Source: Pristiophorus japonicus (taxonomy: Eukaryota). Taken from it: 64,000 nucleotides of DNA. The translations under genes and the position numbers were made by a program. A model generated the notes under the pieces. The model was not told the DNA's origin and made no database searches. It saw only the letters and a program-made list of their open reading frames with translations. How positions within the stretch are numbered: the first letter of the stretch is position 1; each line of letters begins with the position of its first letter. Of the stretch, positions 45,880-63,393 are shown piece by piece. The stretch spans positions 72,540,001 through 72,604,000 of the forward strand of contig NC_091993.1 of assembly GCF_044704955.1 (NCBI RefSeq), read 5' to 3'.

Positions 45880-47000
45880 GGCAGCAAAGCGATCAGGGAT
45901 TAACCGCTGATGCAAGTCTCTAGCTACGGCTATAGGTGCACGAGGCCGCCTCCTCCGCTGTTGTCCTGTGGGTTGAGGTGGTGGCATGGGTTCATCATCG
46001 TCCTCCTCCTCCTGCTGCTGGTCCTTCTCGTCCTCCTGCTGCTCCTCCTCCTCCTCGTCCTCCTCTTCCCCCCACTTCTCCCCTCAGGAGGATCTTCAAT
46101 CATGGCCACGTTGTGCAGCATGCAGCACATGACAGTGAACTGACCGACGTGGTGAGGGGCGTATTGCAAGTAGCCTCCAGCGTGGTCCAAGCATCGGAAA
46201 TGCTGCTTCAGTATGCCAATTGTCCGCTCTATGATGCTCTGTGTCATTATGTGCGACATGTTGTACTGACACTTTGGCTCAGTGCGGGGATTGCGTAGGG
46301 GGGGTCATAGCCAGGTGGCGAGCCCGTACTCTAGGATGAAAGCATCATGGATGCTACCTGGGTATTTGGCATCCACTGCCATGATCCGATGCAGATCGCT
46401 GCAGACGAGCTGCACATTTAGGAAGTGGAACCCTTTCCTGTTGCAATAAACCACGGAGTCTTCCAACGGTGCTCGCAAGGTGATGTGGGTACAGTCGAAC
46501 ACACCCTGTACCTTTGGGAAGCCAACAATTCTGGAGAACCCCACAGCCCTGTCTCGCATTGCCTGCGTGGTCTTAGGGAAATTGATGAACATCCAATTTG
46601 GCATCCAGTGCAGCAGTCACCTGTCGAATGCAGCAATGTGTGGTGTGCTGCGAGATGCAGCATATGTCCCCAGTTGCTGCTTGAAATGAGCCAGAAGCAT
46701 AGAAGGCAAGTGCTGCAGTGACCTTCCCTTCCACAGCCTGCCATTTCTTGGCTGTATGTCTGACCTGACTAGCTGGCAGGTCTCGGTGATGACCTCCTTT
46801 CTAAATCGCAGCCTGTGAATGCAGTCTGCCTCACTCGGGTGTAGGTATGAGCGCCTGTCTCTGTAGATTCGATCAGGGTATGGCCTCCTCCCCATTAATG
46901 CCTGAGCGATCTGCTTTCTGCGATCGTGGCGTTGTATTATCCGTCGCCTCTGCATGGCCTGCATGTAAACCAACCTTACTACATAGTACTATTTGCACCC
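45880..47000 (-). pseudogene. Harbinger DDE transposase (HARBI1-like), frameshifted
   Basis: GFPKVQGVFDCTHI, YCNRKGFHFLNVQLVC, KYPGSIHDAFIL, IIERTIGILKQHFRCLD, CCMLHN. Confidence 0.92.
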
Positions 47001-47450: not shown

Positions 47451-49591
47451 TGTCGAAATCTCGACCTCCGATAAACGACTCAGACACCTTCAGCTCCGGC
47501 AGAAGTTTCTTTAATTTACTTGCTGGCAAGGGAAAGGTCACACTCAGTCAATGGCAAAGTGAACACCTCCGAAATGGTACAGTTTCATGAGATATTTATA
47601 CAGTAAAACCCAAGTTATGGCCTCTCCCTGTGTATTGGCTCTGTCTCGCAGTCAGTGAAGACAGATAAAGAGTTAATTACTACATCCTTGTCCTGACGTG
47701 GTTTCCAGATATTTCCTTTTGTCAGGGTTATAAGTTGGCCAACCGGCCATTACTTGATGAGAGTGTGGTAATGAGCTATTACCTGCCTTGCATTGTGTCA
47801 GGATGGTCCAGTTTTTAAAAAGGAGGGAGAGAGAAAACAGGGAATTATAGACCGGTCAGCCTGACCTCAGTAGCGGGTAAAATGATGGAATCAATAATTA
47901 AGGATGTCATAGCAGCGCATTTTGAAAGAGGTGACATGATAGGTCCAAGTCAGCATGGATTTGTGAAAGGGAAATCATGCTTGACAAATCTTCTGGAATT
48001 TTTTGAGGATGTTTCCAGTAAAGTGGACAAGGGAGAACCAGTTGATGTGGTATATTTGGACTTTCAGAAGGCTTTCGACAAGGTCCCACACAAAAGATTA
48101 ATGTGCAAAGTTAAAGCACATGGGATTGGGGGTAGTGTGCTGACGTGGATTGAGAACTGGTTGTCAGACAGGAAGCAAAGACTAGGTGTAAATGGGTACT
48201 TTTCAGAATGGCAGGCAGTGACTAGTGGGGTACCGCAAGGTTCTGTGCTGGGGCCCCAGCTGTTTACATTGTACATTAATGATTTAGACGAGGGGATTAA
48301 ATGTAGTATCTCCAAATTTGCGGATGACACTAAGTTGGGTGGCAGTGTGAGCTGCGAGGAGGATGCTATGAGGCTGCAGAGTGACTTGGATAGGTTAGGT
48401 GAGTGGGCAAATGCATGGCAGATGAAGTGTAATGTGGATAAATGTGAGGTTATCCACTTTGGTGGTAAAAACAGAGAGACAGACTATTATCTGAATGGTG
48501 ACAGATTAGGAAAAGGGGAGGTGCAACGAGACCTGGGTGTCATGGTACATGAGTCATTGAAGGTTGGCATGCAGGTACAGCAGGTGGTTAAGAAAGCAAA
48601 TGGCATGTTGGCCTTCATAGCGAGGGGATTTGAGTACAGGGGCAGGGAGGTGTTGCTACAGTTGTACAGGGCCTTGGTGAGGCCACACCTGGAGTATTGT
48701 GTACAGTTTTGGTCTCCTAACTTGAGGAAGGACATTCTTGCTATTGAGGGAGTGCAGCGAAGATTCACCAGACTGATTCCCAGGATGGTGGGACTGACCT
48801 ATCAAGAAAGACTGGATCAACTGGGCTTGTATTCACTGGAGTTCAGAAGAATGAGAGGGGACCTCATAGAACCGTTTAGAATTCTGACGGGTTTAGACAG
48901 GTTAGATGCAGGAAGAATGTTCCCAATGTTGGGGAAGTCCAGAACCAGGGGTCACAGTCTAAGAATAAGGGGTAAGCCATTTAGGACCGAGATGAGGAGA
49001 AACTTCTTCACCCAGAGAGTGGTGAACCTGTGGAATTCTCTACCACAGAAAGTAGTTGAGGCCAATTCACTAAATATATTCAAAAGGGAGTTAGATGAAG
49101 TCCTTACTACTCGGGGGATCAAGGGGTATGGCGAGAAAGCAGGAAGCGGGTACTGAAGTTGCATGTTCAGCCATGAACTCATTGAATGGCGGTGCAGGCT
49201 AGAAGGGCTGAATGGCGTACTCCTGCACCTATTTTCTATGTTTCTATGTTTCTATGTTTCCTGGTCAGTTATCTTTTTGCATCAAATGGATGAGGTCTCT
49301 ACAAGAGATAATGGCTAGTGGTTTGAGTACTTCGAAAAGGGTGGAGTGGAGTGGAACTGGTGTTGTATAGACAGTAGGAGAGCACCATGGGGGGGGGTAC
49401 TTGTCTTCAACAGGACTTGTCTTCTAGCTGTCTGGTGGCTATCAGCCATTTCAATCCAGGTTTAGCTGTTCATGCTAACCGACTGCTTGTTGCAGAAATT
49501 CCTGGAAGGACCAGGACTCCAATTTTGTTTTATATTAAAAAGGGCACAAAACTACAGTGTGGTACAGCTTAGATAAAAATACATTTCCACA
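47451..49591 (-). repeat. ERV 3' LTR (about 690 bp net, split by a CR1)
   Basis: PPT aaaatgggggaa followed by TGTGGAAAT...ATTTCGACA; TATAAA at 47595-47600 and ATTAAA at 47510-47515 on the - strand. Confidence 0.85.
47812..49260 (+). mobile_element. Young 5'-truncated CR1 LINE inside the LTR
   Basis: Uninterrupted 424-aa RT/C-terminal ORF (47882-49156, KFADDTKL); (ttctatgt)n tail. Confidence 0.95.
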
Positions 49592-50967
49592 TTCCCCCAT
49601 TTTGTCCTTCACAAGGACAACTTAATCCATTCTGATCTTGTACAGTCTCTATTTCCATTTCCACACAAGAGCCTTCAGTAGTTGTTGCTACCATAACTCT
49701 AGCCGTGGTCTCGGTAGGTAACATGGTTTTTCCCGCCCTGGCACAGCAACACTTAACCAAGACAAGTAATAGATATAGGGCGAAGCCTATCAGCAGGAAT
49801 ATGATCAAACCCTGTACCACAGATCTCCCTGGGGATCCCAACCATCCCAATGCCCAACCCCACAAGGTGATACCGTCCTGGCTTATACTCTATTATAATG
49901 TATTCAGCTAGACTGCCGATTTCTTCTGATTTATCCGGGATATACGTACAGCATTCTCCACCTATTAATGCGCAGGTTCCTCCTTCCTTGGCTAGGAGAT
50001 AATCTAAGGTCATACAATTTTGGAAAGCCACTGTTCGAATAGCTACCATTTTATCATTCACCCCTTCGAAGGCTTGGGAAGTTGCATTGGCTACTGATTC
50101 GACTAAGTTAGCCAGTTCCCGTAACTGCCATTCGGTTGATGCTATTCCATAGTGTGGCACCATTACCTTGAATATTCCATTTAGCCATGTCAAATCCCGT
50201 TTAACTCTATGACTTCCATAGGCATCCCTTAGAGTCTTTATTGGTCTGATAAAGGGTACCACATATCCTAAGTAACAGGACCCTGTCCAGTTGGCTGGTA
50301 ACCATGGGTAGGCTTTATGGCCACAAATAAAGTAGGTGCAATTATAGGACATCAGCTCCTGGTCCTTTCGCGCCATCCATACTCGAGTGGTCTCACCTTC
50401 CCACTCTTCACCTGGGGCTTTGTTATGGACCATCGTCCAGCCAACGGTTGCTATCTTTCTCCCATCAGTGGGATTAGTTGTGGCTTGCCATTTAGTCATT
50501 TGGGAACACTTGCTGCGTCCTATTTCTGGTCCTTTAGTCTCATTACTCACTAGGCATATTATACCTTCAGGATTTCCTATTCCGGGAGTAATACTTAGGA
50601 AGGGAGGCTGACGGTTATTATTATAATTTGGCTGGTACCATCCCTGGAAGGTTGTAAGTTTATACCCTGCTGACCTCCATTCTGTTTGCTCCTTCATTTC
50701 TGACACCTTGGTTAGGTTTGTCCTATTTTGCACTATCAACCATTCTACCATTTCTGATTTGTTAAAGGGGACAGATCTCAGGGGAATACCCCCTTCGGAG
50801 TGGACAGGTACATGGGAACATATCCAACAACTCGACAAGTTTCTTTCTTGAGCATACTTATGACTCAGTGCCATAAATACGTTTACTTGCAGTTCCCTTC
50901 GGTGGCGTGTCTGTACCCCTGATATAATCAATAATGCAAAGTAAAACTCTGTCAAGCCCAGCACCAT
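49569..50967 (-). pseudogene. env: Gamma-type retroviral Env with one frameshift before the membrane anchor
   Basis: Signal peptide, CWIC, furin site RVKR, ISD-like QNCMTLDYLLA, CX6CC (CALIGGECC); membrane anchor in another frame (49569-49865). Confidence 0.92.
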
Positions 50968-50996
50968 CAGTCGTCATTGTCCGTACAGTTCCTTAT

Positions 50997-53335
50997 TCAG
51001 TCTTCCTTTTTCTGTTCCTCTGGTTCCTTCTTCCCTTCCTCCTGGTCAGGTGCCCTTTTGCAATGGGATGCGTGGATCCATGTTGGTCTTTCCTTTACCT
51101 TGATTGCAGTATTGGTCGCCAGCAAGACCTGGTATGGTCCTTCAAATCTTGGCTGTAGACTGTTTTTTCTTTTAAAGATTTTGATGTAAACGAATTCTCC
51201 GGGCTCCAGGTTATGACACTTCCCTTCCGCTGGCTTGACTTGAGCTTCCTTTACCTGTGAATGAAAGCTGGAAATACATTTGGTTAGTGCAATACAATAA
51301 TTCAACATATTTTCCTCCATTTTGTGGATGTCCATTTGTTTTGCAGTAAATGGTGCTGTAAAAGGTAGTCATTGGGGACGTCCCATAACTATCTCATGCG
51401 GTGACAGGCCTGTTGTTCTGTTGGTTGCAGATCGCATTACCATCAAAGCTAAGGGCAGCAGTTCTGTCCATTTCAGTCCAGTGTCATTGCATAATTTTGC
51501 CAGCTTATTTTTAAGCATTCCATTATATCTTTCAACAAGTCCAGCTGATTGTGGATGATAACTGCAATGAAAACGTTGATTAATCTGTAAAGCTTTACAC
51601 ATTTCTCTTATAACAGTTCCCGTGAAATGTGACCCGTTATCACTAGAAAGCTTCGCAGGGATTCCAAAGCACGGTACGATTTCTTTTAACAAACATTTAG
51701 CAACAGTAGTGGCATCGGCCTTTTTACATGGAAAGGCTTCAATCCATCTAGAGAACACATCTACAATAATGAATAGATACTTGAATCCCATACACATAGG
51801 TAATTCAATAAAATCCATTTGTAAATGTGCAAAAGGCCCCACTGGATTTGGGTGGGAGGCATATTCTACTTTTTCCGTCTTACCCGGATTCATTGTCTGA
51901 CAGGTAACACAATTTTCACAGATTTGTTTTGCAATTGCCGAAATACCTGGTGCATACCAAGTTGCCAAAATATAATCTGCCATCCCCCCTTTGCCTGCAT
52001 GTGTGAATGTATGAACACATCGGGCAATCCATGGAAGTAAGGATCTGGGCGCCACCACGCGGCCGTCGTGGTGAGCCCATATTCCTTCTGGATTTTTATA
52101 ACATTGATCCTTCGTCCAGGTCACCACCTCCTCCGTACTGTCCTGTGTCTGAAAGGTCAGCACGTCATTAATAGTGGGTGGCGGGTCTGAGCAATTATTT
52201 TTCCTTAGTGGAAACAATGACACCTGCATATCCCCCCTTTTGACAGAGCTGCTGACTTAGCTGCATTATCAGCTCTGGCGTTCCCAAGTGCCACCTCATT
52301 CGACTGGCCTGTATGTGCTTGGCATTTGATAATGGCAAGTTTCAAGGGGCATTGAATGGCTCGCAGGAGATTTTCCACTTGTTCTGCATTTTTGATAGTG
52401 GTTCCTGAAGAAGTCAGGTACTCGCGAATCTTCCAAATTTGTCCATCGTCCATCCCAAAAGCATACCTGGAGTCAGTGTAGATATTAATTGTTTGTCCTT
52501 CAGCCAGAATACAGGCTCAAGTTAACGCAAACAATTCGGCTTGTTGGGCTGAAAAGGAGTCTGGAAGAGAGGCTGTTTTGACAACATTAAACTGGGTTAC
52601 AATTGCTCTAGGTTGGCCCCTATCAATTCGTAAGGCTGATCCGTCAACATAGTACACTAGATCAGGGTTACACATTGGTACATCTGTTAAATTGATACGT
52701 GGTTTAGTCACTAATTCAGTTACCATTTTACATTAATGGGGTTCGCCGTCTTCTTCCGTGGGTAGTAGAGTGGCTGGATTTAAGGTAGTACATCTTTTGA
52801 TGATAAGGTTTGGATTTGATAACAGTTCGACCTCATACTTAGTGGTTCTTGTAGAAGTTAGGTGTGGGGTGGCACATTTAGGAAGTAAAATCTCGACAGG
52901 GTGTGGGATATATAAAACGGTTTGATGATTTAGAGTTATTGTCTGAGCCTGTTGTATAGCATAATAAGCTGCTGCCAACGAAGGAAGACATCCTGGTAGT
53001 CCGCGTGCCACTGGGTCTAGTTGGGTACTGAAATACGCTACCGGCCGCTGCCTATCCCCATGTAACTGAGTCAAAACAGATTGTGCAAAACCCAACTTGT
53101 GATGAACAAATAAGTTGAATGGCTGAGTGTAATCTGGTAATCCCAAGGCTGGTGCTGAAGTGAGGGACTGCTTAAGATTCTGGAAAGCATTCCGGGGATA
53201 CTTCATTCCAAATCCTTCTTTAAGCATTGTGAGAATATAGTAGATTCATTCACAGCTCGTAGGTCTTGGACAAACCTCCATTTGTCACTGTTGGGCTTCT
53301 GAACCGGAAGAATCGGTTTGTTACACGGACTTCTC
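50997..53335 (-). pseudogene. pol: Retroviral pol remnant (RT start, connection, RNase H, integrase)
   Basis: SPCNKPILPVQKP..WRFVQDLRAVN then a deletion; APALGLPDY, RPVAYFS, YVDGS, SAQQAEL; IN HHCC, QMDFIEL, SSDNGSHF, YHPQSAGLVER, FEGPYQV; in-frame stop at 51369. Confidence 0.93.
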
Positions 53336-54139
53336 ATTTATGCTTATAGTGATTTACAGATCACAGAATGTAAAGTATTTGTTTTATAATTTTATTAAAA
53401 GGCTTCCAAACCCAAGATTTTTCCTATACACCCAAAATGTTGATCAAGGAGATCACCTGAAATATCTCAAAATCCCAATTCAAATATTGTACTCCCACTC
53501 TTTATCTAAAAACAAATCCTCTTACTGAGCTAGAAGCTTTCGCGTCAAGATTTTACACCAAGGACAATGGGAGCGTACTCCCCCAGCCTGCAGCCGCGAG
53601 AGACCCACAAAGGCTTTTAAAAAAAAAGGCATTACAACTTCCCTTCCCTGTTCTCTATCTTACTCCTGGGCTAAATTTATGTCTTTCATACCATTATAAT
53701 CAATGATTGCGTGTCTTCTTTCGACAAGTAAGTGAGCGTGTCAAATAAATTCTCTTTTTTTTTAAACCACCGGGACCATGTCTCAACAAACCTACGCTTT
53801 GTGCATTTCCTAGCTCCGTAACTTCTCATCCGAATAAATCCACACTTGCGTTTCTAACTTAAAATTTCTTAAACTTCCCACATACAGGACAACACTATGA
53901 AGGGTTAAAAAAAAACTTCACTCTGTTTGAAAAAGTGGGTGGAGCTAAAACAAACAGGCAGTTGTACCACCTTTCCAAACAGGCTTCCAGACACATGAGA
54001 AAAAAAACACAGATGCACTCTCATTCTAAGGCAGACATTCACAAAAGTCTCTCTTCATTCAATAAAGCTTTTTTTTTGTTGGCCAGCTTTATTTTTTTTT
54101 TAATCCATAAGTCACTATCAGGTTCTCTTTATTTTTACA

Positions 54140-54438
54140 TATTGATTTACTGCCTCTGTTAATTTTACATGGGCTTGAAGAATCGGAACCCAGGCCTTTT
54201 CTATTACTTTCCTTTTTTTTTTACCTCTTCTACCTGGATCTCTGTTTATAAGACACTCCTCTAGACATGTTGTTCTCTCTAAATTAAATGAACCATCGGG
54301 TGGAAATGGCCTGTTTTCACCCTTAGTCCACTTTACCGGTTTTTGTTTCTTTGGTCAATTGAAGACTGACCACAATTCTGGAGCGTAACATAGGCTGGTG
54401 TGGCCTTTTGTGGTGTTTTAACTTGCTCCGGCACCCAT
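54140..54438 (-). pseudogene. gag: gag matrix remnant
   Basis: MGAGAS* (myristoylation-type start) ... TPAYV ... KWTKGENRPFPPDGSFNLE, resembling class I MA; frameshifted. Confidence 0.6.
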
Positions 54439-54857
54439 TCTGAATGATTAAGATTTTCCACAGTTTCTGATCTCACAATCCTTTCGGCCAAGAGTTCTCT
54501 ACGCCCACTTCTCCTGGCCGTTACATGGCCTGAAAAGGCTCTTAATTCGGGCTCAGTCTGGGTGTGTGAGATATGTTGGCACGAACCAACCGTAGTTGAT
54601 CAATCAGTTACTGTTTCTTTTCTCAATCAATCCTTGTTTTTCTGAATCACAATTTTCCCTGGTGACTCTTCCCGTTTCCCTAATTGCAATGTCGCACAAA
54701 AGTATTGAACACAACAGTATAACAAGGACAACTAGGACAATCAACATTCACGCCAGTACACAAATCATAACCTTAAACTCTATCTAAACAAATAATCAAT
54801 TCTCAGTCTGCATTGTACGCCACTACAGACCGAGTCCTTAACTTATCTTAATAAAAC

Positions 54858-55560
54858 TGTTAGTGTGAATGTTTTCTCAGAAGAATCACTCAACACTCAG
54901 AGTCGGTTCCAATGCCGTCGCGGCCTTTATTACGCTTAGCGGGGAGGAAATCTCAGGACTGTATCCAGGTTTCTCTCCACAGAACAAAGGGTTACATGCA
55001 CCTTTATATGTTTCACAACAGTTACAAACAGTTTACTACAGCTACACAGCCCATCATGGCTGGACACAAGCCAATCACAACGATTATAGATTACATATAG
55101 GTTCTTTTAACCCAATAGAATTCCCCTAGTGTCTCGGGAACCATATGTTCGATTATTGTCAGCTTGCGCTGCTTGATGACTTTACTATAGGAGATAGGTT
55201 CTCTCCCTAGTTCTTTCATCTGGGAGAAATAATTGGTTTATAACCTTGTTTACAGGAGATGGATTCCCTCTTATCTTTCTTCCTGGGGAATTAATTGGTT
55301 TATGGCCTTGTTCACAGGGGATGGTTTTCCTCTTATCTCTTTCTTCCTGCATCCAAGGCATTCCTATAGTCTGCCTCACAGGGTTATTGCTCGGTCATTG
55401 AACATTCAACAGTTCACAGCTTGACTACCTGATTTCCCATCATGCTTGGGCAGCCAATTTATGTGTGGCCACTTTAAACTTATATGCGTTTAGATATATC
55501 TAGCAGGTGCCTAATGCCTAGTGTTCTGGTATATTCAAAAGGTGCCTACCTCCTACAACA
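54858..55560 (-). repeat. 3' LTR (703 bp) of a second, different LTR element
   Basis: PPT aaaagggggagt followed by TGTTG...TAACA; TATAAA at 55003-55008 and AATAAA at 54926-54931 on the - strand; no visible similarity to the LTR at 47451. Confidence 0.85.
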
Positions 55561-55697
55561 ACTCCCCCTTTTGGTAAAGGGTCTAGTCCTAGTCCCCTTT
55601 TAACCGACCATTCGACCTTTATTAGATTTTGTGCACGGCTCGGTACTCCCTGCCTCAACGTGCTGGCCAGTCACGCGGTTTCAGGAGTCCCGGTTGC

Positions 55698-57826
55698 TTA
55701 AATCAAATTGACAAAGGCTAAATCCTCCTTCCCCCTTATCAAACAGGCTTGTTTAGTATCCGGGGAACGGTGATTTGTCCGTCTTCGTTGTGCGTGGTGT
55801 CTGCATGCCTGGCAGGCCATTACGCCCCATGTTATTGCTAAGATCAATTGTATCCTGACCAGTATATGTGAAATTATTCGAATCCATTGGTGGATGTTCA
55901 CATTTATTCCCCAGTCCCAGACCTTTCTCCACCAACTCTGACTTTGTAAGTCTACCTCGGTATCTTCTTCCAGTACTTTGATTTTAGTTTGTAGTTGGTG
56001 GTAGAGCTTTACGGATTGACCCACTCTGAGCCTCTAATACTTCGGTTAGATGTGGGATAGGGACCTGATCTAGTTTGTCATAATCCTGTAAATGATCATG
56101 GAGCTGATCGGTTACCTCAATAACTTCGGACTTCCGGCGCCTAACCTGGGTGATATGCGCTTGCCCGATCGCGACAGGTCGTAGTGGTGTAAAGCAAAAG
56201 TTTGGCTGTGGTATAGGGCACTGCAGGTCATTATACTGGAATGAACGCTCAGTAGTAGAGACGCAGTATCTTCCCTTCCCTCCGTAGCCTGCCCTCGCGA
56301 AGTGCATGTGTGCGGGCACTATTTCTAGTACACACCCATCGGTTCGGTTAAACCCGCACTCGTCTAGCTCCCCTCGGCCCACCGGGTGAGGGCATACTGT
56401 GATTTCCCCCTTTTGCTTGCAATCTGCTAGGGAAATCCCGGTAAGTATGTTGTTTCGACGAACGGCAGAGGTGGTGGTCAGGTAGTAGCGTATGGAGACA
56501 TTTTCCCGTATTACTCCGATATTCTCTAGTTGGTATAGGGAGAACGGCCCTGAGTCCGGCGTGGCTATAGGGATCATCAGGACTATCCCTATCCCGGTAG
56601 TCCTACCCATCTGGCAATCTGGAATTGCTGGGTATACTCGGGTCAGTCCCTTCAGAGCACAATTATCCAGTGTCCCCCTTTTGTTAGCTAACTGAGCTAA
56701 ATGTGAACTGTCTATCCAATCGGGTACTTCCCCGCGTTGGATCTGGTCGAGATTGTGGCGGATCTGTCCCACCATCCACAGACCATAAGCGTGACAGAGT
56801 TGCCCCTGTCTTTGCTTTCCGGTATCTTCTTTTTCTCTATCAATGAGGTGATTGATGGTTTTGTCGTGAGCTTCCAGGACTGAGATGCCATCCAACTGGA
56901 TTTCGGCACCCTCCTTTCCTAGGTTGGCTTGGTCTTCCTGGTTTTGCTCCACCCTCTCTAATAACCCCTTCATCACCCCTCTAAGCTGTTCCACCCTCTC
57001 ATTTAACCCTTGTATGTCTATCGAGTTCACTATGGAGGTCCCTGTATTGAAAACGGTAGCAACATCATTAACTATTTCCCTCTTCATCCTGGGGGCTAAC
57101 CCCTGTCCCCGGAACCTACTGGCACCCATTGCATCGGCAGCCTGCTGCATTACAACTTTACTTAATACATTATACATTTTCCTTGACTGTTCGGTACAGT
57201 ATTCCGGCATCTGGATGCCTGAAATATTGATCAGAACAGGCACAATTTCATGTTTAACATTATCATACAACAGTTCCCCTTCGTTGTACATTACAATCCC
57301 ATTCTCTGGTCCCTTAGTAGTTATGGGACAAGGCAGTTCCTCGGGCAATGTAGTGGTTCTTATGGGGTGCGGTGTTGGAGGGGGTGAGAAACATACATAC
57401 AATGATATTGCAGCCGCCCCCGCCTCCTCGTAATACCCACACAGCCCCACTCCCTTCTTGCGGATGACCGATTGCTGGGATTGTCCCGGAAGCACGCAAA
57501 TTATGCCGAAAGTACATTCATCGGGCCCTTTAACATCCCTCCGTTTAATGCATCTGCTCCTTATACCCGTGGAGCACTGTACACATACTCTTATTCTTAT
57601 TAGGATTCTTATTAGGATTCACTTGTAACCATGCATTAAAATAAGTCCTGTCCTTGCTCCAGTCCTTGGCTGCTGGGATGCACATTCCGTCCGTTAAATT
57701 AAACAAGACTCCATAGTTCATGTAGTTGTTTATTTCCAGCGTGCTCTGCTGTCCGTCGGTGTTGCCCAGGGTACGTGCATGTCGCAGGGCTATCCATATT
57801 ACGAGTAGCGCCGTTCGTATTCCCAT
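55698..57826 (-). pseudogene. Class I fusion glycoprotein (F-type env), about 710 aa, two frameshifts
   Basis: Signal peptide MGIRTALLVIWIAL, furin site RMKR (57079-57090), long heptad helix, Cys-rich region, second heptad, Trp-rich membrane-proximal segment and TM, directly upstream of PPT/LTR. No CXXC/CX6CC pair or ISD. Confidence 0.8.
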
Positions 57827-57935
57827 TCCGGTAAGTATTATCTGTAATTTTAAACAGACGGCCTGGTCGTCACCAGGGGTTAAGTTTTTTGCTCTACGAG
57901 TGTCCCTGTCACCCTGCAAAATCAGAAGCACAAGG

Positions 57936-58046
57936 TTATAATCGAACCATTTCGAGCTGAATCTGTAGGGTGTGCGCCCGTGTCTTTACCCACTTAAATA
58001 TTACCCAAACTCCTATGACCAAGGCCAAAGCTATTCCTCCAAACAT
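57936..58046 (-). CDS. Putative 36-aa single-TM accessory peptide
   Basis: MFGGIALALVIGVWVIFKWVKTRAHTLQIQLEMVRL*; stops just before the candidate env splice acceptor. Confidence 0.3.
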   Translation of the reverse strand: MFGGIALALVIGVWVIFKWVKTRAHTLQIQLEMVRL

Positions 58047-59776
58047 CGCTGTCTGCTTTACCGTTAGGTTGGGTTTGTGGACTACACCTACCCACCGTGG
58101 GGTACATTGGCTCTATTGCTGTAGGTGATGGTGCTATGGCTGCGCACTGCACTATCCGTCTAGTCCCGTTATCTCTTCCAGCCTGTTTATCTTAGCTTTT
58201 AACTCTTCAATTTGTTTTATTGAGTATCTATTTCTTTATTGTATCAGGCAAGTATTATTACATAAGCTAGTTCTGTTTTTATTTTTGTTTCCTCTGTTAG
58301 GTGAGTCTTTTTTTCTATTAAGAAATCCAAATTAATAATGTTCAGTATAAAACGGCTGTCAATGGAAAGGGTTAACTCCTTTCCAGGTTTGTAAGAAGAC
58401 CTGATGTCATTACGTGACTTCACGTAATCATCTGAAAAAAAAGTCTTTGTGCCTTCAAAACTGGCTTCGAAATTAGGAATCCGTTAAACAGCATAAATCA
58501 TTAGAGCAAACTCCAATGTTTTCTTAACTTCTAATTCAAGTACTTGCCAAAGAATTTTTTTTAATTGTTTTAAAACAAGACCACACATACAATAGCAATT
58601 TTGTTTACTGAAATTCAATTCTGTTTTTTTTTATTTCTCTCTTTCTCCTCGTTATCTTCAAAACCCTCCTGCTTGTTTAGACTGTTCGGGACATTTTTGA
58701 TAAACACTGTCCATTTTGGAAATCTTTTCAAACTGCATTGAAACTTTTTCATAATTTAAAATTTGAATCCATGTAGAGTGTTTTTTACCTATTCCAATTT
58801 TTTTTTTCTTCTAATTAAACCAATATCTTTTTCACAGCAAACATCAGCTAGTATTTAGTAAGTTATGTCTTTTTCCATTTAGTCCGTTACATCTTTTTTT
58901 TCTTTCTTCAAATTAGGTTTTGTATTTTACACGGAGGGTTCATAACTCCATAAAGTTGTTAATTTAAAATGATTTGTTTACTTTCAAAGTGGCGTCTTTA
59001 TCTTTTTCTTTTTCTCCCTAACTGGAATGGAGTCCAGCTTTGAGAGTTTGAGGACTGCCTTTCGTTATCTCAAAATGCTCCAGTTTCAAAGTCGATACTA
59101 AAGCTTGCTGTTTTTAACATTTTCCAAAAGTCCCTTTTACACCTTTGCAGATAGCTCGCCACTCGCCCAGAAGTTTGACCTGATCAGATTTAGTTTAATA
59201 ATTTTTTTTTTTTGAATCCACCTCAGTATTTTCTGTGCCTTCTCTGAATATCTCAAAATCCCAATTCAAACATTGTAATTTCAATCTTTATTTAAAACCT
59301 TTTTTTTGCTAGAAGCTCTTTTTTTTTAAAGCATTCTTTATCTCATTCCGAGACTAAATTTATGTCTTTCAACCCAATCAATCATTGCATGTTTTCTTTC
59401 GGCAAGTAAGTGAGCGTGACAAATAAATCTTTTGCTCAACAAACCTATCCTTTATATATTTGTTTACTTTCCTAGCTCCATAACTTATCATCCGAATAAA
59501 TCCACACCTGCGTTTCTAACTTAAATGTCTTAAAACTTCCCACATACAGGACAACACTACAAAGGGTTAGCTAAAATAAACAGTCACTTGCATTCCTCTT
59601 CCAACCAGGCTTTCAGAAAAATTCATTCCGCAGTCACAAAATCACACAGGGACTCTCACTCAACGACCAGACATTTACAACAGTCTCTCTTCTTTCCTAT
59701 TAATTTTTTTTTTTTTGATCCATGACCTTTCAGGGAATTCGTAGTTTTATCTAAATAATTCCTCACATAACTTTTA

Positions 59777-60124
59777 TGACCCAGTGAGGGGCCTTCTCCC
59801 AGGGACCCAGTGAGGGGTCTTCTCGCACAGATCCAGTGAGGGCCTTCTCCCCCCTGGACCCAGTGAGGGGCCTTCTCCCAGGGACCCAGTGAGGGGCCTT
59901 CTCTCCCCCGGACCCAGTGAGGGGCCTTCTCCTCCCTGGACCCAGTGAGGGGCCTTCTCCCAGGGACCCAGTGAGGGTCCTTCTCCCCCCTGGACCCAGT
60001 GAGGGGCCTTCTCTGCCCCGGACCTAGTGAGTGGCCTTCTTTGCCCCGGACCCAGTGAGGGGCCTTCTCCCCCCTAGACCCAATGAGGGGCCTTCTCCTC
60101 CCTGGACCCAGTGAGGGGCCTTCT
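59777..60124. repeat. Minisatellite, about 28-32 bp unit ggacccagtgaggggccttctccc
   Basis: About 12 units visible. Confidence 0.93.
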
Positions 60125-60404
60125 TGCACAGAGCTGAGGAAAGCATGGCCCGTGCTTTCTGCAGCTGTGGGGTACTGTGCATGCGCAGCCGGACCTCGGT
60201 GGCAATGTGCATGCGTAACTGCTGAGGCCCTAAGCTCTGGAATTCCCTGAACCTCACCGCATCCCTACCTCTCTTTCCTCCTTCAAGATGCTCCTTAAAA
60301 CGTACCTCTTTGACCAAGCTTTTTTGGCACCTACCTTATTTATAACGTGAAGCGCCTTGGGACATATTACTACATTAAAGGCGCAATAAAAGTGATAGCC
60401 GCTG

Positions 60405-60987: not shown

Positions 60988-63393
60988 TGTTGTGTATCTG
61001 CAAAGCACGCACTTCCATGTTCCGCCACCAGGGAGTGCATCCCCTGAAGTCTCAAGGGATCCCAGCATCCCTTGGGAGCACTGTTATAAGCAGGCCCCTA
61101 AGGCCTGCTTATTCTGGAGTGTCTTAATAAACCCTGAGGTCACTGTTACTTTAACCTCCCTGTATGCAATCTCATCTGTGTTAGCAACACAACAACTGGC
61201 GACGAGTATACGAATCCACGCAAAGATGCAGCAAACTGTGGGCATCCTGGAGAAGTTCTCAGAGGGTGAGGACTGGGAAGCCAATGTTGAACGGTTAGAC
61301 CAGTACTTTGTAGCCAATGAGCTGGACGGAGAAGGAAGCACTGCAAAAAGGAGAGCGGTCCTCCTCATGGTCTGCACGGCACCAACCTACAACCTCATGA
61401 AGAATCTTCTGGCTCCAGTGAAACCCACAGATAAGTTGTATGAGGAGCTGTGTATACTGGAGCATCTTAACCCGAGGGAGAGCGTGCTGATGGCGAGGTA
61501 TCGGTTCTATACGTGCCAGCGATCTGAAGGTCAGGAAGTGGCAAGTTACGTCGCCGAGCTAAGGCAACTTGCAGGACAATGTGAGTTTGATGGCTACCTG
61601 GAGCAAATGCTCAGAGACTTTTTTGTACTGGGCATTGGCCACGAGACCATCCTATGAAAACTTTTGACTGTAGAGACACCAACCCACAGTAAGGCCATTG
61701 CGATAGCACAGGCGTTTATGTCCACCAGTGATAACACCAAACAAATCTCTCAGCACACAAGTGCTAGCAATGTTCATAAATTAACTGGAACTGTGTTTGC
61801 GAGCAGAAATGTACAGGGCAGAAACCACGAGTCTTCAACTGCCAGCAGGCCTCAGGTGACCCAGATGACTCAGAATCTGCAACAAAGGATGAATGCAAGG
61901 CAATTCACAACTTGTTGGCATTGTGGAGGCTTCCATTCAGCCTATTCATGATGCTTCAAAGGATATGTTTGCAAGAGCTGTGAAACAATGGGGCACCTCC
62001 AATGAGGCAGACGAGCTGCAAGCTCTGCAAAACCTGCTAACCACCACGTGGCAGAGGAAGATCGGTCCATGGTGGACCAAAGCAATTTCGAGCCTCAGAG
62101 AGAGGAGGCAGGTGCTGAAGTACACGGGGTGCACACATTTTCGATGATGCTAAACGTAAAATTGAATAGCTTACCCGTAGCCATGGAACTGGACACTGGC
62201 GCTAGCCAATCCATCATTCGTAAAAAGATGTTTGAGAGACTGTGGTGTAACAAGGCATTCAGACCAGCCCTGAGCCCCATCCACACGACACTGAGAATGT
62301 ACACCAAAGAGCTTATCACTGTCCTGGGCAGCGTTATGGTCAAGGTCACCTACGAGGGCACAGTGCACGAACTGCCACTCTGGATTGTCCCGGGCGATGG
62401 CCCCACACTGCTTGGAAGGAGCTGGCTGGGCAAAATCCGCTGGAACTGGGATGACATCCGAGCGCTATCACATGTCGATGAGGCCTCATGTACCCAGGTT
62501 CTTAACAAATTTCCATCCCTTTTTGAGCCAGGCATTGGAAACTTTTCCGGGGCGAAGGTGCGGATCCACTTGGGCCCAGAGGCACGACCCATTCACCACA
62601 AGGCGCGAGCGGTACCTCACATGATGAGGGAGAGAGTGGAAATCGAGCTGGACAGGCTGCAACACGAGCGCATCATCTCCCCAGTGGAATTCAGCGAGTG
62701 GGCCAGCCTGATTGTTCCAGTACTCAAAAGTGATGGCACGGTCAGGATTTACGGTGATTATAAAGTAACTATTAATCGTTTCTCGCTACAGGACCAATAC
62801 CCGCTACCTAAGGCAGACGACCTATTTGCGATGCTGGCAGGAGGCAAGACATTCACCAAGCTCAACCTGACTTCGGCCTACATGACGCAGGAGCTGGAGA
62901 AGTCTTCGAAGGGCCTCACCTGCATCAACACGCACAAGGGACTGTTCATCTACAAGATGCCCATTTGGAATTCGGTCGGCTGCAGCGATCTTCCAGAGAA
63001 ACATGGAGAGCCTACTCAAGTTGGTACCACGCACAGTGTTTTTTTAGGACGACATATTGGTCACGGGTCGGGACACCGTCGAGAATCTACAAAACCTGGA
63101 GGAGGTCCTCCAGCGACTGGATCGCGTAGGACTGCAGCTGAAGAGGTTGAAATGCGTCTTCATGGCAACAGAAATTGAGTTTTTGGGGAGAAAGATCACG
63201 GCGGATGGCATTCGGCACACAGATGCCAAGACAGAGGCTATCAGGAATGCGCCCAGGCCACAGAATGTCATGGAGCTGCGATCGTTCCTGGGACTCCTCA
63301 ACTATTTTGGTAACTTCCTACCAGGATTAAGCACCCTCTTAAAGCCCCTACATGTGTCATTGCGTAAAGGTATGAACTGGGTATGGGGAAAAA
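60988..63393 (+). mobile_element. Mag-like Ty3/Gypsy LTR retrotransposon, 3'-truncated
   Basis: LTR 60988-61194 TGTTGTGT...ACACAACA; PBS TGGCGACGAG at 61197 (tRNA-Ser(GCU)-like); gag GILEKFSEGEDWEA..; protease ELDTGAS; RT EWASLIVPV, QYPLPK, FLGRKI, ELRSFLGLLNYF; contains stops and frameshifts. Confidence 0.92.

Follow-up and report, generated by a model that had tools for sequence, protein, structure and literature searches.

The window, the whole stretch of 64,000 nucleotides that was analysed, contains at 54858..59776 a copy of an endogenous retrovirus (ERV) with an F-type envelope gene; the copy is 5′-truncated and without gag-pol, its parent family (the F family below) is present in high copy number and the host is likely a shark. 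All features of the element are read on the minus strand. The 3′ LTR (54858..55560) has a length of 703 bp and TGT...ACA ends, and matches both LTRs of genomic copies at 87–97%. Directly before it lies a polypurine tract (55561..55572), read from the sequence and found at the same position in genomic copies, and further upstream follow the env gene (55698..57826) and a candidate env splice acceptor composed of a pyrimidine tract and AG (57914..57935). The order of env, purine tract and LTR (55560–54858) bears out the initial annotation. The same holds for its description of a non-autonomous copy: gag and pol were not found in the window copy, and their place is occupied by an AT-rich (66%) non-coding stuffer (58046..59775), which gag-pol copies do not carry. 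A sequence comparison placed a module shared with the adjacent element within this stuffer (59247..59714). The stuffer matched none of the fetched proteins, and an Rfam search over 53000–60200 yielded no match at E ≤ 1. A 28-bp minisatellite with 12.7 copies (59778..60124, unstranded) is located at the 5′-truncation point of the element, and a 5′ LTR of this copy was not found, including in the 15 kb beyond the window.

The env ATG lies at 57826 and the gene runs through three frames (57826–57620, 57591–56035 and 56033–55701), with frame changes near 57600 and 56035. The three pieces are 86–95% identical to an unaltered genomic copy, which encodes 707 aa and has 462 aa downstream of the RMKR furin-type site (57079..57090 in the window); the earlier estimates, made from the letters alone, were ~710 aa for the frameshifted glycoprotein and ~460 aa after the cleavage site. 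Signal peptide and splice acceptor (near 57914) likewise come from a reading of the letters and stand as candidates. RMKR is followed by a putative fusion peptide, which is weakly hydrophobic (window score up to 0.87), and by HR1 helices; a transmembrane segment is predicted at residues ~645–673 of 707 (hydropathy peak 1.9; 55803..55889, coordinates mapped from the HSP). The order of elements is that of F-type proteins: basic cleavage site, fusion peptide, HR1, Cys-rich beta domains, HR2 and TM. A gamma-type CX6CC motif is absent from the three env frames, as had been stated, and ISD and TLV_coat were not detected either. The env of the neighbouring ERV served as a positive control for these gamma-type tests and gave TLV_coat at E 2e-11, CX6CC and an ISD-like stretch.

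Sequence profiles gave little indication of the protein family. Pfam yielded no family match for the three window env pieces or for the Env of the genomic copy, and phmmer and profile searches against the PDB gave no route to F, with foamy Env at no better than E 0.4–1.3. Among 33 of 64 Env homologs Pfam found a single weak Baculo_F match (E 0.0011, below cut-off); Atlas features of the window's own ORF gave 0.96 for Baculo_F clusters. The structural matches are those of the predicted Env, modelled from the unaltered genomic copy. Foldseek against the PDB placed RSV F at the top (E 7.5e-10), with 255 matches at E ≤ 1e-3, and in VIA ranks 1–12 of 48,161 chains were all F proteins or foamy Env (Z 7.3–10.5; 7.8 to foamy Env and 8.1–10.5 to F proteins). 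The model is of moderate quality (pLDDT 64.8, pTM 0.39, residues 1–160 poor), and its TM-scores are 0.2–0.33 with high rmsd. Foldseek, VIA and BFVD all point to the F core fold in this moderate model. The matches to RSV/paramyxovirus F and foamy Env, obtained by the AlphaFold/Foldseek-style check that had been suggested, support the earlier view that the window Env is predicted to fold as an F-type (paramyxo/pneumo/baculo/foamy-like) fusogen and not as a gamma-type one. Fusogens of the foamy Env/F type carry the label ‘Ib’. Homologs of this Env occur in several sharks and in frogs, among the latter Mantella, Pelodytes, Bombina and Xenopus. The dN/dS of env is 0.08–0.21 (17 pairs, with one reference copy common to all), and because purifying selection on env is as strong as on pol, the F-Env lineage has presumably spread by infection.

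The adjacent element, also on the minus strand, was described before as a class I ERV with an ordinary gamma-type env, and its RNase H/integrase remnants, its TLV_coat env and an RT inside gamma+epsilon confirm this. Its internal region (49593..54857) begins ~490 bp into the leader and comprises the rest of the leader, the gag start, the shared module, RNase H/IN remnants and the gamma env (50973–49630); its 3′ LTR of ~700 bp (47451..49592) is split by a LINE-type insertion at ~47815–49255. The LTRs of the two elements are unrelated, and copies of the neighbour family have their own LTR ~490 bp upstream of the junction. The median LTR mismatch is ~1.2% in the F family vs 2.6% in the neighbour family (18 pairs each, worked by hand). 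It is thus likely that the F-Env element entered the leader of a class I ERV that is older and unrelated to it; since the window copy is without its 5′ end, this nesting is not proved by a target site duplication (TSD). A tandem of two elements with a shared LTR was considered as well and rejected, as the LTRs differ.

The initial annotation regarded the internal regions of both elements as homologous. A shared segment does exist (59714–59247 vs 54077–53461; three pieces, 72–88% identity, best E 9e-51), but it covers only ~0.5 kb of the internal region. The neighbour's copy of the module (53461..54222, minus strand) starts at 54222–54124 with codons 61% identical to F-family Gag 55–87. The module was found in 0 of 13 gag-pol loci of the F family and in 0 of 4 gag-pol copies of the neighbour family; deleted derivatives belonging to at least four families do have it, other families accounting for 17 of 30 sampled loci. 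With this distribution the module gives no sign of class I ancestry, and we rejected it as evidence of common descent. It is no evidence that a class I-related lineage captured the F-type env, and the adjacency of the two elements reflects the nested insertion. Against this stands a 63-bp leader stretch in which gag-pol copies of one family are 73–79% identical to those of the other.

The parent family is abundant: exact env 24-mers matched the genome 1,633 times, and the same pol was joined to the same env in 4 of 20 env-selected loci and in 9 RT-selected loci. These gag-pol copies carry the same LTR and env as the window element, and the leader of a deleted copy is 90% identical to that of a gag-pol copy. 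They are arranged as LTR, PBS, gag (two CCHC knuckles), TAG, pol (PR-RT-tether-RNase H-IN), env and LTR, where the PBS is one that we take to be complementary to serine-tRNA. Gag and pol share one frame with a stop codon between them, an arrangement that is not exclusive to class I. Among 20 F-family loci (6 of them without two ends) the TSD had 5 bp in 11/14 and 4 bp in 3/14, and in the neighbour family it had 4 bp in 14/14; a 4-bp target duplication is the rule for class I ERVs. The TGT...ACA ends and the 5-bp TSD of the F family agree with those given for class III in the available part of PMC8278194.

A class I backbone had been suggested, and we sought gag-pol copies via env and RT and placed their RT in trees. 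From the first RT tree 13 short sequences were left out and 204 were thinned to 71, the second kept 58; the RT of locus L145, a long-branch gypsy-like insertion, was left out before the AU tests, and the integrase (IN) tree was built without L139 and P0008, whose sequences were too short. The F-family RT falls outside the gamma+epsilon clade (100/99), which includes the neighbour RT, and a position inside is rejected (AU p 1.07e-7), so that the backbone is not class I. The RT lies among canonical retroviruses, within the clade of foamy, MLV and WEHV1 (100/97), and apart from gypsy and bovine foamy virus. In raw score, MLV RT was best in the PDB (405 vs 205 bits for foamy), and the pol showed a weak MLVIN_C match (E 0.003). 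Of 20 distant F-env loci that had some pol match, 18 had a best-scoring reference that was not from class I. Named SnRV, ERV-S and lokiretrovirus references were not found, and viral contigs gave one weak locus. As the RT trees hold no snakehead retrovirus reference and their deep nodes are not firm, the class III/SnRV grade of the F-family Pol is putative.

Nine loci with ~60% identical Pol carry a gamma Env with ISD/CX6CC. They are sister to an F-Env locus, L120 (RT 100/99, IN 98/90), a single, degraded locus for which no LTR pair was found, and F-Env monophyly is rejected (p 0.0098, in a test named after the tree was seen). The gamma-Env family likely nests among F-Env lineages. The proposed envelope exchange across deep viral lineages is therefore retained in so far as an exchange took place in this Pol clade; its direction was more likely from F-type to gamma-type, the reverse of the first proposal. 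The same backbone could have had the opposite Env history, with a gamma Env first and repeated captures of an F-type Env, the donors being Mononegavirales, lokiretroviruses or foamy-like viruses. Many fish ERVs carry gamma Envs, PMC9967133 makes the case that in the walleye viruses an ancestral gamma Env gave way to the present one, and a branch of the IN tree joins three shark lineages without resolution. However, F-Envs from four Pol lineages of this genome are homologous, with ~30% identity among them vs ~12% to any viral F, and F-Env occurs in 3 of 4 shark-clade lineages and outside the clade, where one loss is simpler; we consider repeated capture unlikely. A lokiretrovirus in a cartilaginous fish is very improbable. 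Lokiretroviruses are the vertebrate lineage known to have an F-like Env, and the RXKR site in such an Env and the dual RNase H are as in PMC7947760, but the RT lies within the foamy/MLV/WEHV1 clade (100/97), and an unnamed sequence, P0153, sits outside instead, where a lokiretrovirus would. Less probable still is the capture of an F-type envelope by a class I ERV-related, non-autonomous lineage, as proposed initially, which draws on the ~0.5 kb in common with the adjacent class I ERV, the 63-bp leader match, the class I-like gag-pol readthrough, the MLV RT score and the match of walleye epsilonretrovirus Envs to the model (which makes an F-like Env on a class I Pol probable elsewhere), but which has against it the rejection of the RT as class I, the 5-bp TSD, the unrelated LTRs, a module missing from gag-pol copies of either family and found in other families, and the F-family gag-like codons that open the neighbour's module. 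This element is not a case of a class I ERV capturing an envelope across deep lineages.

We regard it as probable, with good confidence, that the element is a gag-pol-deleted, 5′-truncated copy of a high-copy ERV with a Pol outside class I and its own Env of predicted paramyxovirus/foamy F-fold, likely inserted in the leader of an older class I ERV. The parent virus carries gag, pol and env between its LTRs. Its Env would be translated from a spliced RNA and cleaved at RMKR by furin, and would fuse membranes like an F protein, with HR1 forming a core against which HR2 packs back. In the derivative, gag-pol was replaced by the AT-rich stuffer, whose module may travel when defective ERVs of several families recombine. 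Most sampled deleted copies have one env break in common, which suggests that they are copied in trans by helper copies and do not need an Env of their own. F-type Env would be ancestral in the Pol clade, one sister family having switched to a gamma-type Env. A wider reading, for which we would give somewhat less than even chances, is that retroviruses originally had an F-fold fusogen as their envelope, which persists in lokiretroviruses, foamy viruses, the shark/frog lineage and walleye epsilonretroviruses, and that gamma-type Env is a later replacement spread by recombination, once between sister families in this genome.

Cartilaginous fish are known hosts of SnRV-related, clade Huo or class III ERVs, including CmiERV lineage I of the elephant shark, which share with the F family an aquatic host and a canonical Pol that groups neither with gamma+epsilon nor with foamy virus (PMC4422223, PMC6001957, in part). 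The available parts of both papers contain no description of an F-type Env, and kinship with clade Huo is suggested from trees without SnRV or CmiERV sequences. In a literature search of mostly non-subscription main texts, no paper was listed that describes a class III-like shark ERV with an F-fold Env; the fish and amphibian Env survey in the accessible part of bioRxiv 2021.11.23.469661 used gamma and beta queries only. According to the parts seen, XtERV-S (PMC8278194) and ERV-SA (bioRxiv 2021.11.23.469661) combine a class III Pol with a class I Env, and the gamma-Env sister family is the same kind of chimera. They resemble the F family in a TGT...ACA LTR of ~700 bp, a 5-bp TSD and a serine-tRNA PBS (presumed for the F family); in contrast, XtERV-S is described there with a Gag without zinc knuckles and a gamma-like Env TM, whereas in the F family Gag has two CCHC knuckles and Env the predicted F fold. 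Lokiretroviruses, as far as the sections consulted of PMC7947760 and PMC9040795 go, share LTR-gag-pol-env, dual RNase H and a Mononegavirales-F-like Env with RXKR, fusion peptide, coiled coil and TM. They differ in an RT that is sister to all canonical retroviruses, where the F-family RT lies inside these, in an Env that matches Pfam Fusion_gly, where the F-family Env matches no Pfam family, and in hosts listed there without cartilaginous fish. Foamy Env and paramyxo/pneumovirus F (PMC11468914, in part) share a predicted common core with the F-family Env. However, foamy virus Env has ~990 aa and a long leader vs 707 aa and a short N-terminal signal in the F family, and unlike spumaretroviruses the F family has a Gag with CCHC and an RT not grouped with bovine foamy virus. 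The Envs of walleye epsilonretroviruses, which are without gamma-type hallmarks (PMC9967133), were the top BFVD predicted-structure matches (WEHV1 and WDSV, E 4.8e-14 and 4.5e-11), but they are much longer (1,159–1,317 aa), show 12–14% identity and low TM-scores (0.28, 0.14) and accompany a class I Pol. PMC9040795 favours separate Env origins for canonical retroviruses and lokiretroviruses on the ground that the Envs of the two did not look related. This premise is weakened by a family of >1,600 copies that joins a canonical, non-foamy Pol to an F-fold Env, the Env being under purifying selection and having homologs in several sharks and frogs. Sister families in which Pol is ~60% identical but the fusogens belong to two unrelated classes make the direction of exchange testable with Pol and Env trees.

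On the minus strand of the window, the F-type element carries an env-like gene (57826 to 55701) spread over three frames, with frame changes near 57600 and 56035, a furin-type RMKR site (57090-57079) and, downstream of env, a purine tract followed by an LTR of 703 bp (55560-54858). CX6CC is not present in this gene. The initial annotation had described this anatomy correctly, as it had the ordinary gamma-type env of the adjacent class I ERV, hereafter the neighbour (TLV_coat by Pfam, E 2e-11). No Pfam family was matched by any of the three window env pieces. The 5′ LTR is missing from this copy, at whose 5′ end a 28-bp minisatellite begins (59778).

A protein search of the 5.9 Gb genome scored 102 loci of this F family, all except the window copy at 96–97% identity, and an env 24-mer had 1,633 exact genomic matches (control 0). 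Twenty env-selected loci were fetched, a non-random sample with some chosen for long frames: 16 are deleted copies composed of LTR, leader, gag start, AT-rich stuffer, env and LTR. The genome-wide search proposed earlier also yielded fuller copies, as in four of the 20 the same LTR and env accompany gag-pol; a pair among the four, with common flanks, is one insertion. The leader is 90% identical between one deleted and one gag-pol copy. Searching with RT gave 141 scored loci; identity was 89–100% for the first 81. In the F family, two CCHC knuckles occur in Gag, gag and pol are separated by a TAG, and Pol runs PR-RT-tether-RNase H-IN; the PBS presumably resembles tRNA-Ser. Paired LTRs show 0–2.9% mismatches. 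Pairwise dN/dS was 0.08–0.21 for env (17 pairs) and 0.06–0.32 for pol (7 pairs, one further pair being saturated), all against one copy. The first env break has a signature found in 13 of the 16 deleted copies, so this subfamily likely spread without an Env of its own. The deleted element also forms a tandem array with a spacing of 5,653 bp (G000 C7 near 121.29-121.32 Mb).

The Env fold was predicted with AlphaFold2 from an unaltered genomic copy and a 33-row alignment (pLDDT 64.8, pTM 0.39; residues 1–160 poor). Foldseek against the PDB gave RSV F as top match (E 7.5e-10) and 255 matches at E≤1e-3, the best 40 of which, those listed, are F proteins only. VIA ranks 1–12 of 48,161 chains were the F proteins of NDV, hMPV, RSV, measles, PIV5, GhV and PIV3 together with foamy Env (Z 7.3–10.5 across 261–361 residues). 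The best BFVD matches include Env of the walleye epsilonretroviruses WEHV1 and WDSV, lispivirus glycoproteins and baculovirus F; in the Atlas, the window's own frame matched Baculo_F clusters at 0.96 with a low recognition value. These predicted-structure matches to RSV/paramyxovirus F, foamy Env and baculovirus F support the F-type glycoprotein of the initial annotation. The TM-scores were low and the rmsd high, as might be expected from a mixture of prefusion and postfusion forms, and this limits the claim to a common core: by its predicted fold the Env is F-type, sharing the F core with viral F proteins rather than being their close relative. Within BFVD, WEHV1 Env ranks 1, WDSV Env 5, and A0A384ZVF2 (928 aa) 2.

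Mustelus and Chiloscyllium supply the nearest Env homologs (52–61% identity). A profile search returned 64 homologs; 20 were looked up, and the 18 with names are all from sharks or frogs. The N-terminal part is different and beta-rich in distant shark/frog homologs (P0235, P0249, P0254, P0256, P0277); P0235 is Ig-like by UniRef name and P0256 has a weak V-set match (E 0.045). Shark host gene models (P0251, P0247, P0264; fbxo15, Niban-like, cadherin-like) seem to contain Env fragments, through either exonization or annotation error.

The element had further been assigned a class I ERV-related backbone, which the Pol data contradict. RT trees place the F family alongside sequences of shark, minnow and herring (96/88 and 95/89) and not in the gamma+epsilon clade (100/99), whose members include MLV, WEHV1 and the neighbour. 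A gypsy RT, envisaged earlier for full-length copies, was not found in them; the family lies within the canonical retroviral crown, separate from bovine foamy virus and gypsy. Constraining it into class I was rejected (AU test, p 1.07e-7). Eleven of 14 F-family loci have target duplications of 5 bp, versus 4 bp in 14 of 14 neighbour-family loci; 5-bp duplications and TGT...ACA ends are given for class III in the consulted sections of PMC8278194. Two points count against a non-class-I placement: the best PDB match of the RT by score is MLV RT, and the deep nodes of the trees are weakly settled. Judged by sequence, the backbone is nevertheless not class I, and we regard anatomy and backbone, taken jointly, as highly probable. 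'Class III/clade Huo' (after excerpts of PMC6001957 and PMC4422223) is the likely label for this Pol, in trees drawn without the snakehead retrovirus (SnRV) sequence.

Nine of 20 RT-selected loci carry a gamma Env (ISD/CX6CC), with RT ~70% identical to the F family; ten carry an F-type Env and in one none was seen. This gamma-Env family (L111–L119), with Pol ~60% identical to the F-Env family and its own LTR of roughly 400 bp, joins a class III-like Pol to a class I Env. The gamma-Env family is sister to F-Env locus L120 (RT 100/99, IN 98/90), a single locus at which an LTR pair was not found, and three F-Env lineages fall within the 19-row IN clade. Monophyly of the F-Env group, named after the tree was seen, was rejected (p 0.0098). 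A pol match was present at 18 of 20 distant F-env loci (three of the matches being probably unrelated insertions), and at none of the 18 did a class I reference score best. Instead of the proposed capture of an F-type envelope by a class I lineage, the simplest reading is a single F-to-gamma Env replacement in a sister family, of the known XtERV-S type. That the swap ran from F-type to gamma-type is fairly likely; an F-type Env ancestral among retroviruses is a tentative idea that we rather doubt. Four loci (L135, L137, L138, L144) form a second, distant F-Env lineage with RT among canonical retroviruses, whose IN groups (96/97) with lokiretrovirus-like row P0153 and a coelacanth protein.

The internal homology with the neighbour is real, covering ~0.5 kb (59714-59247) at 72–88% identity, but it fails as a sign of common class I ancestry because this module recurs in deleted derivatives across families. 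It is found in 16/16 deleted F copies and in 0/13 F-family gag-pol loci; 15 of 20 neighbour-family loci have it, the exceptions being four with gag-pol and one truncated. The AT-rich module (59247-59714, 53461-54222; loci L067-L108) takes the place of gag or gag-pol in deleted derivatives of at least four ERV families, and in the neighbour's family it entered at two different gag positions (L073 and L084 versus L047). A module 27-mer has 3,458 exact genomic matches (control 0), the first 30 falling in the neighbour family (7), the F family (6) and others (17, mostly another class I derivative). The module is a piece exchanged among defective ERVs and no mark of descent; for its role, RNA export or packaging is a guess. 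In the neighbour, a class I gag is interrupted and continues as codons 61% identical to F-family Gag 55–87, which points to a donor on the F-family side. The neighbour represents a separate family with its own 700-bp LTR, and the junction ~490 bp inside its leader fits nested insertion of the F element. Median LTR-pair mismatch, worked by hand on best matches, is ~2.6% in the neighbour family versus ~1.2% in the F family; the neighbour-family pairs are older. Overall, the initial interpretation was half right.

A 63-bp leader stretch (54512-54574) is 73–79% identical between gag-pol copies of the F family and those of the unrelated neighbour family. Elsewhere in the window, a frame of 390 aa (62006-63178) includes an aspartyl protease of gag type and is likely a gypsy element; there are also a tandem array of ~57 or more 40-bp units (37582 to ~39900) and broken minus-strand frames (45900-47000) that we take to resemble Harbinger-type transposase.

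F-like Env has been published for lokiretroviruses (PMC7947760), foamy viruses (PMC11468914) and invertebrate errantiviruses (PMC13524379, where vertebrate ERVs are deferred); PMC9040795 prefers separate Env origins and PMC9967133 treats walleye Env as non-gamma and recent, all according to the portions consulted. The corresponding portions of PMC12690878, PMC12193657, PMC12583693, PMC11521997 and bioRxiv 2021.11.05.467493 hold nothing on this type of Env, and no published account of an F-fold Env on such a shark ERV was found in the main texts searched. What would be new here, on sequence and model evidence, is a canonical non-class-I Pol combined with a predicted F-fold Env, together with a probable swap to gamma Env in a sister family.
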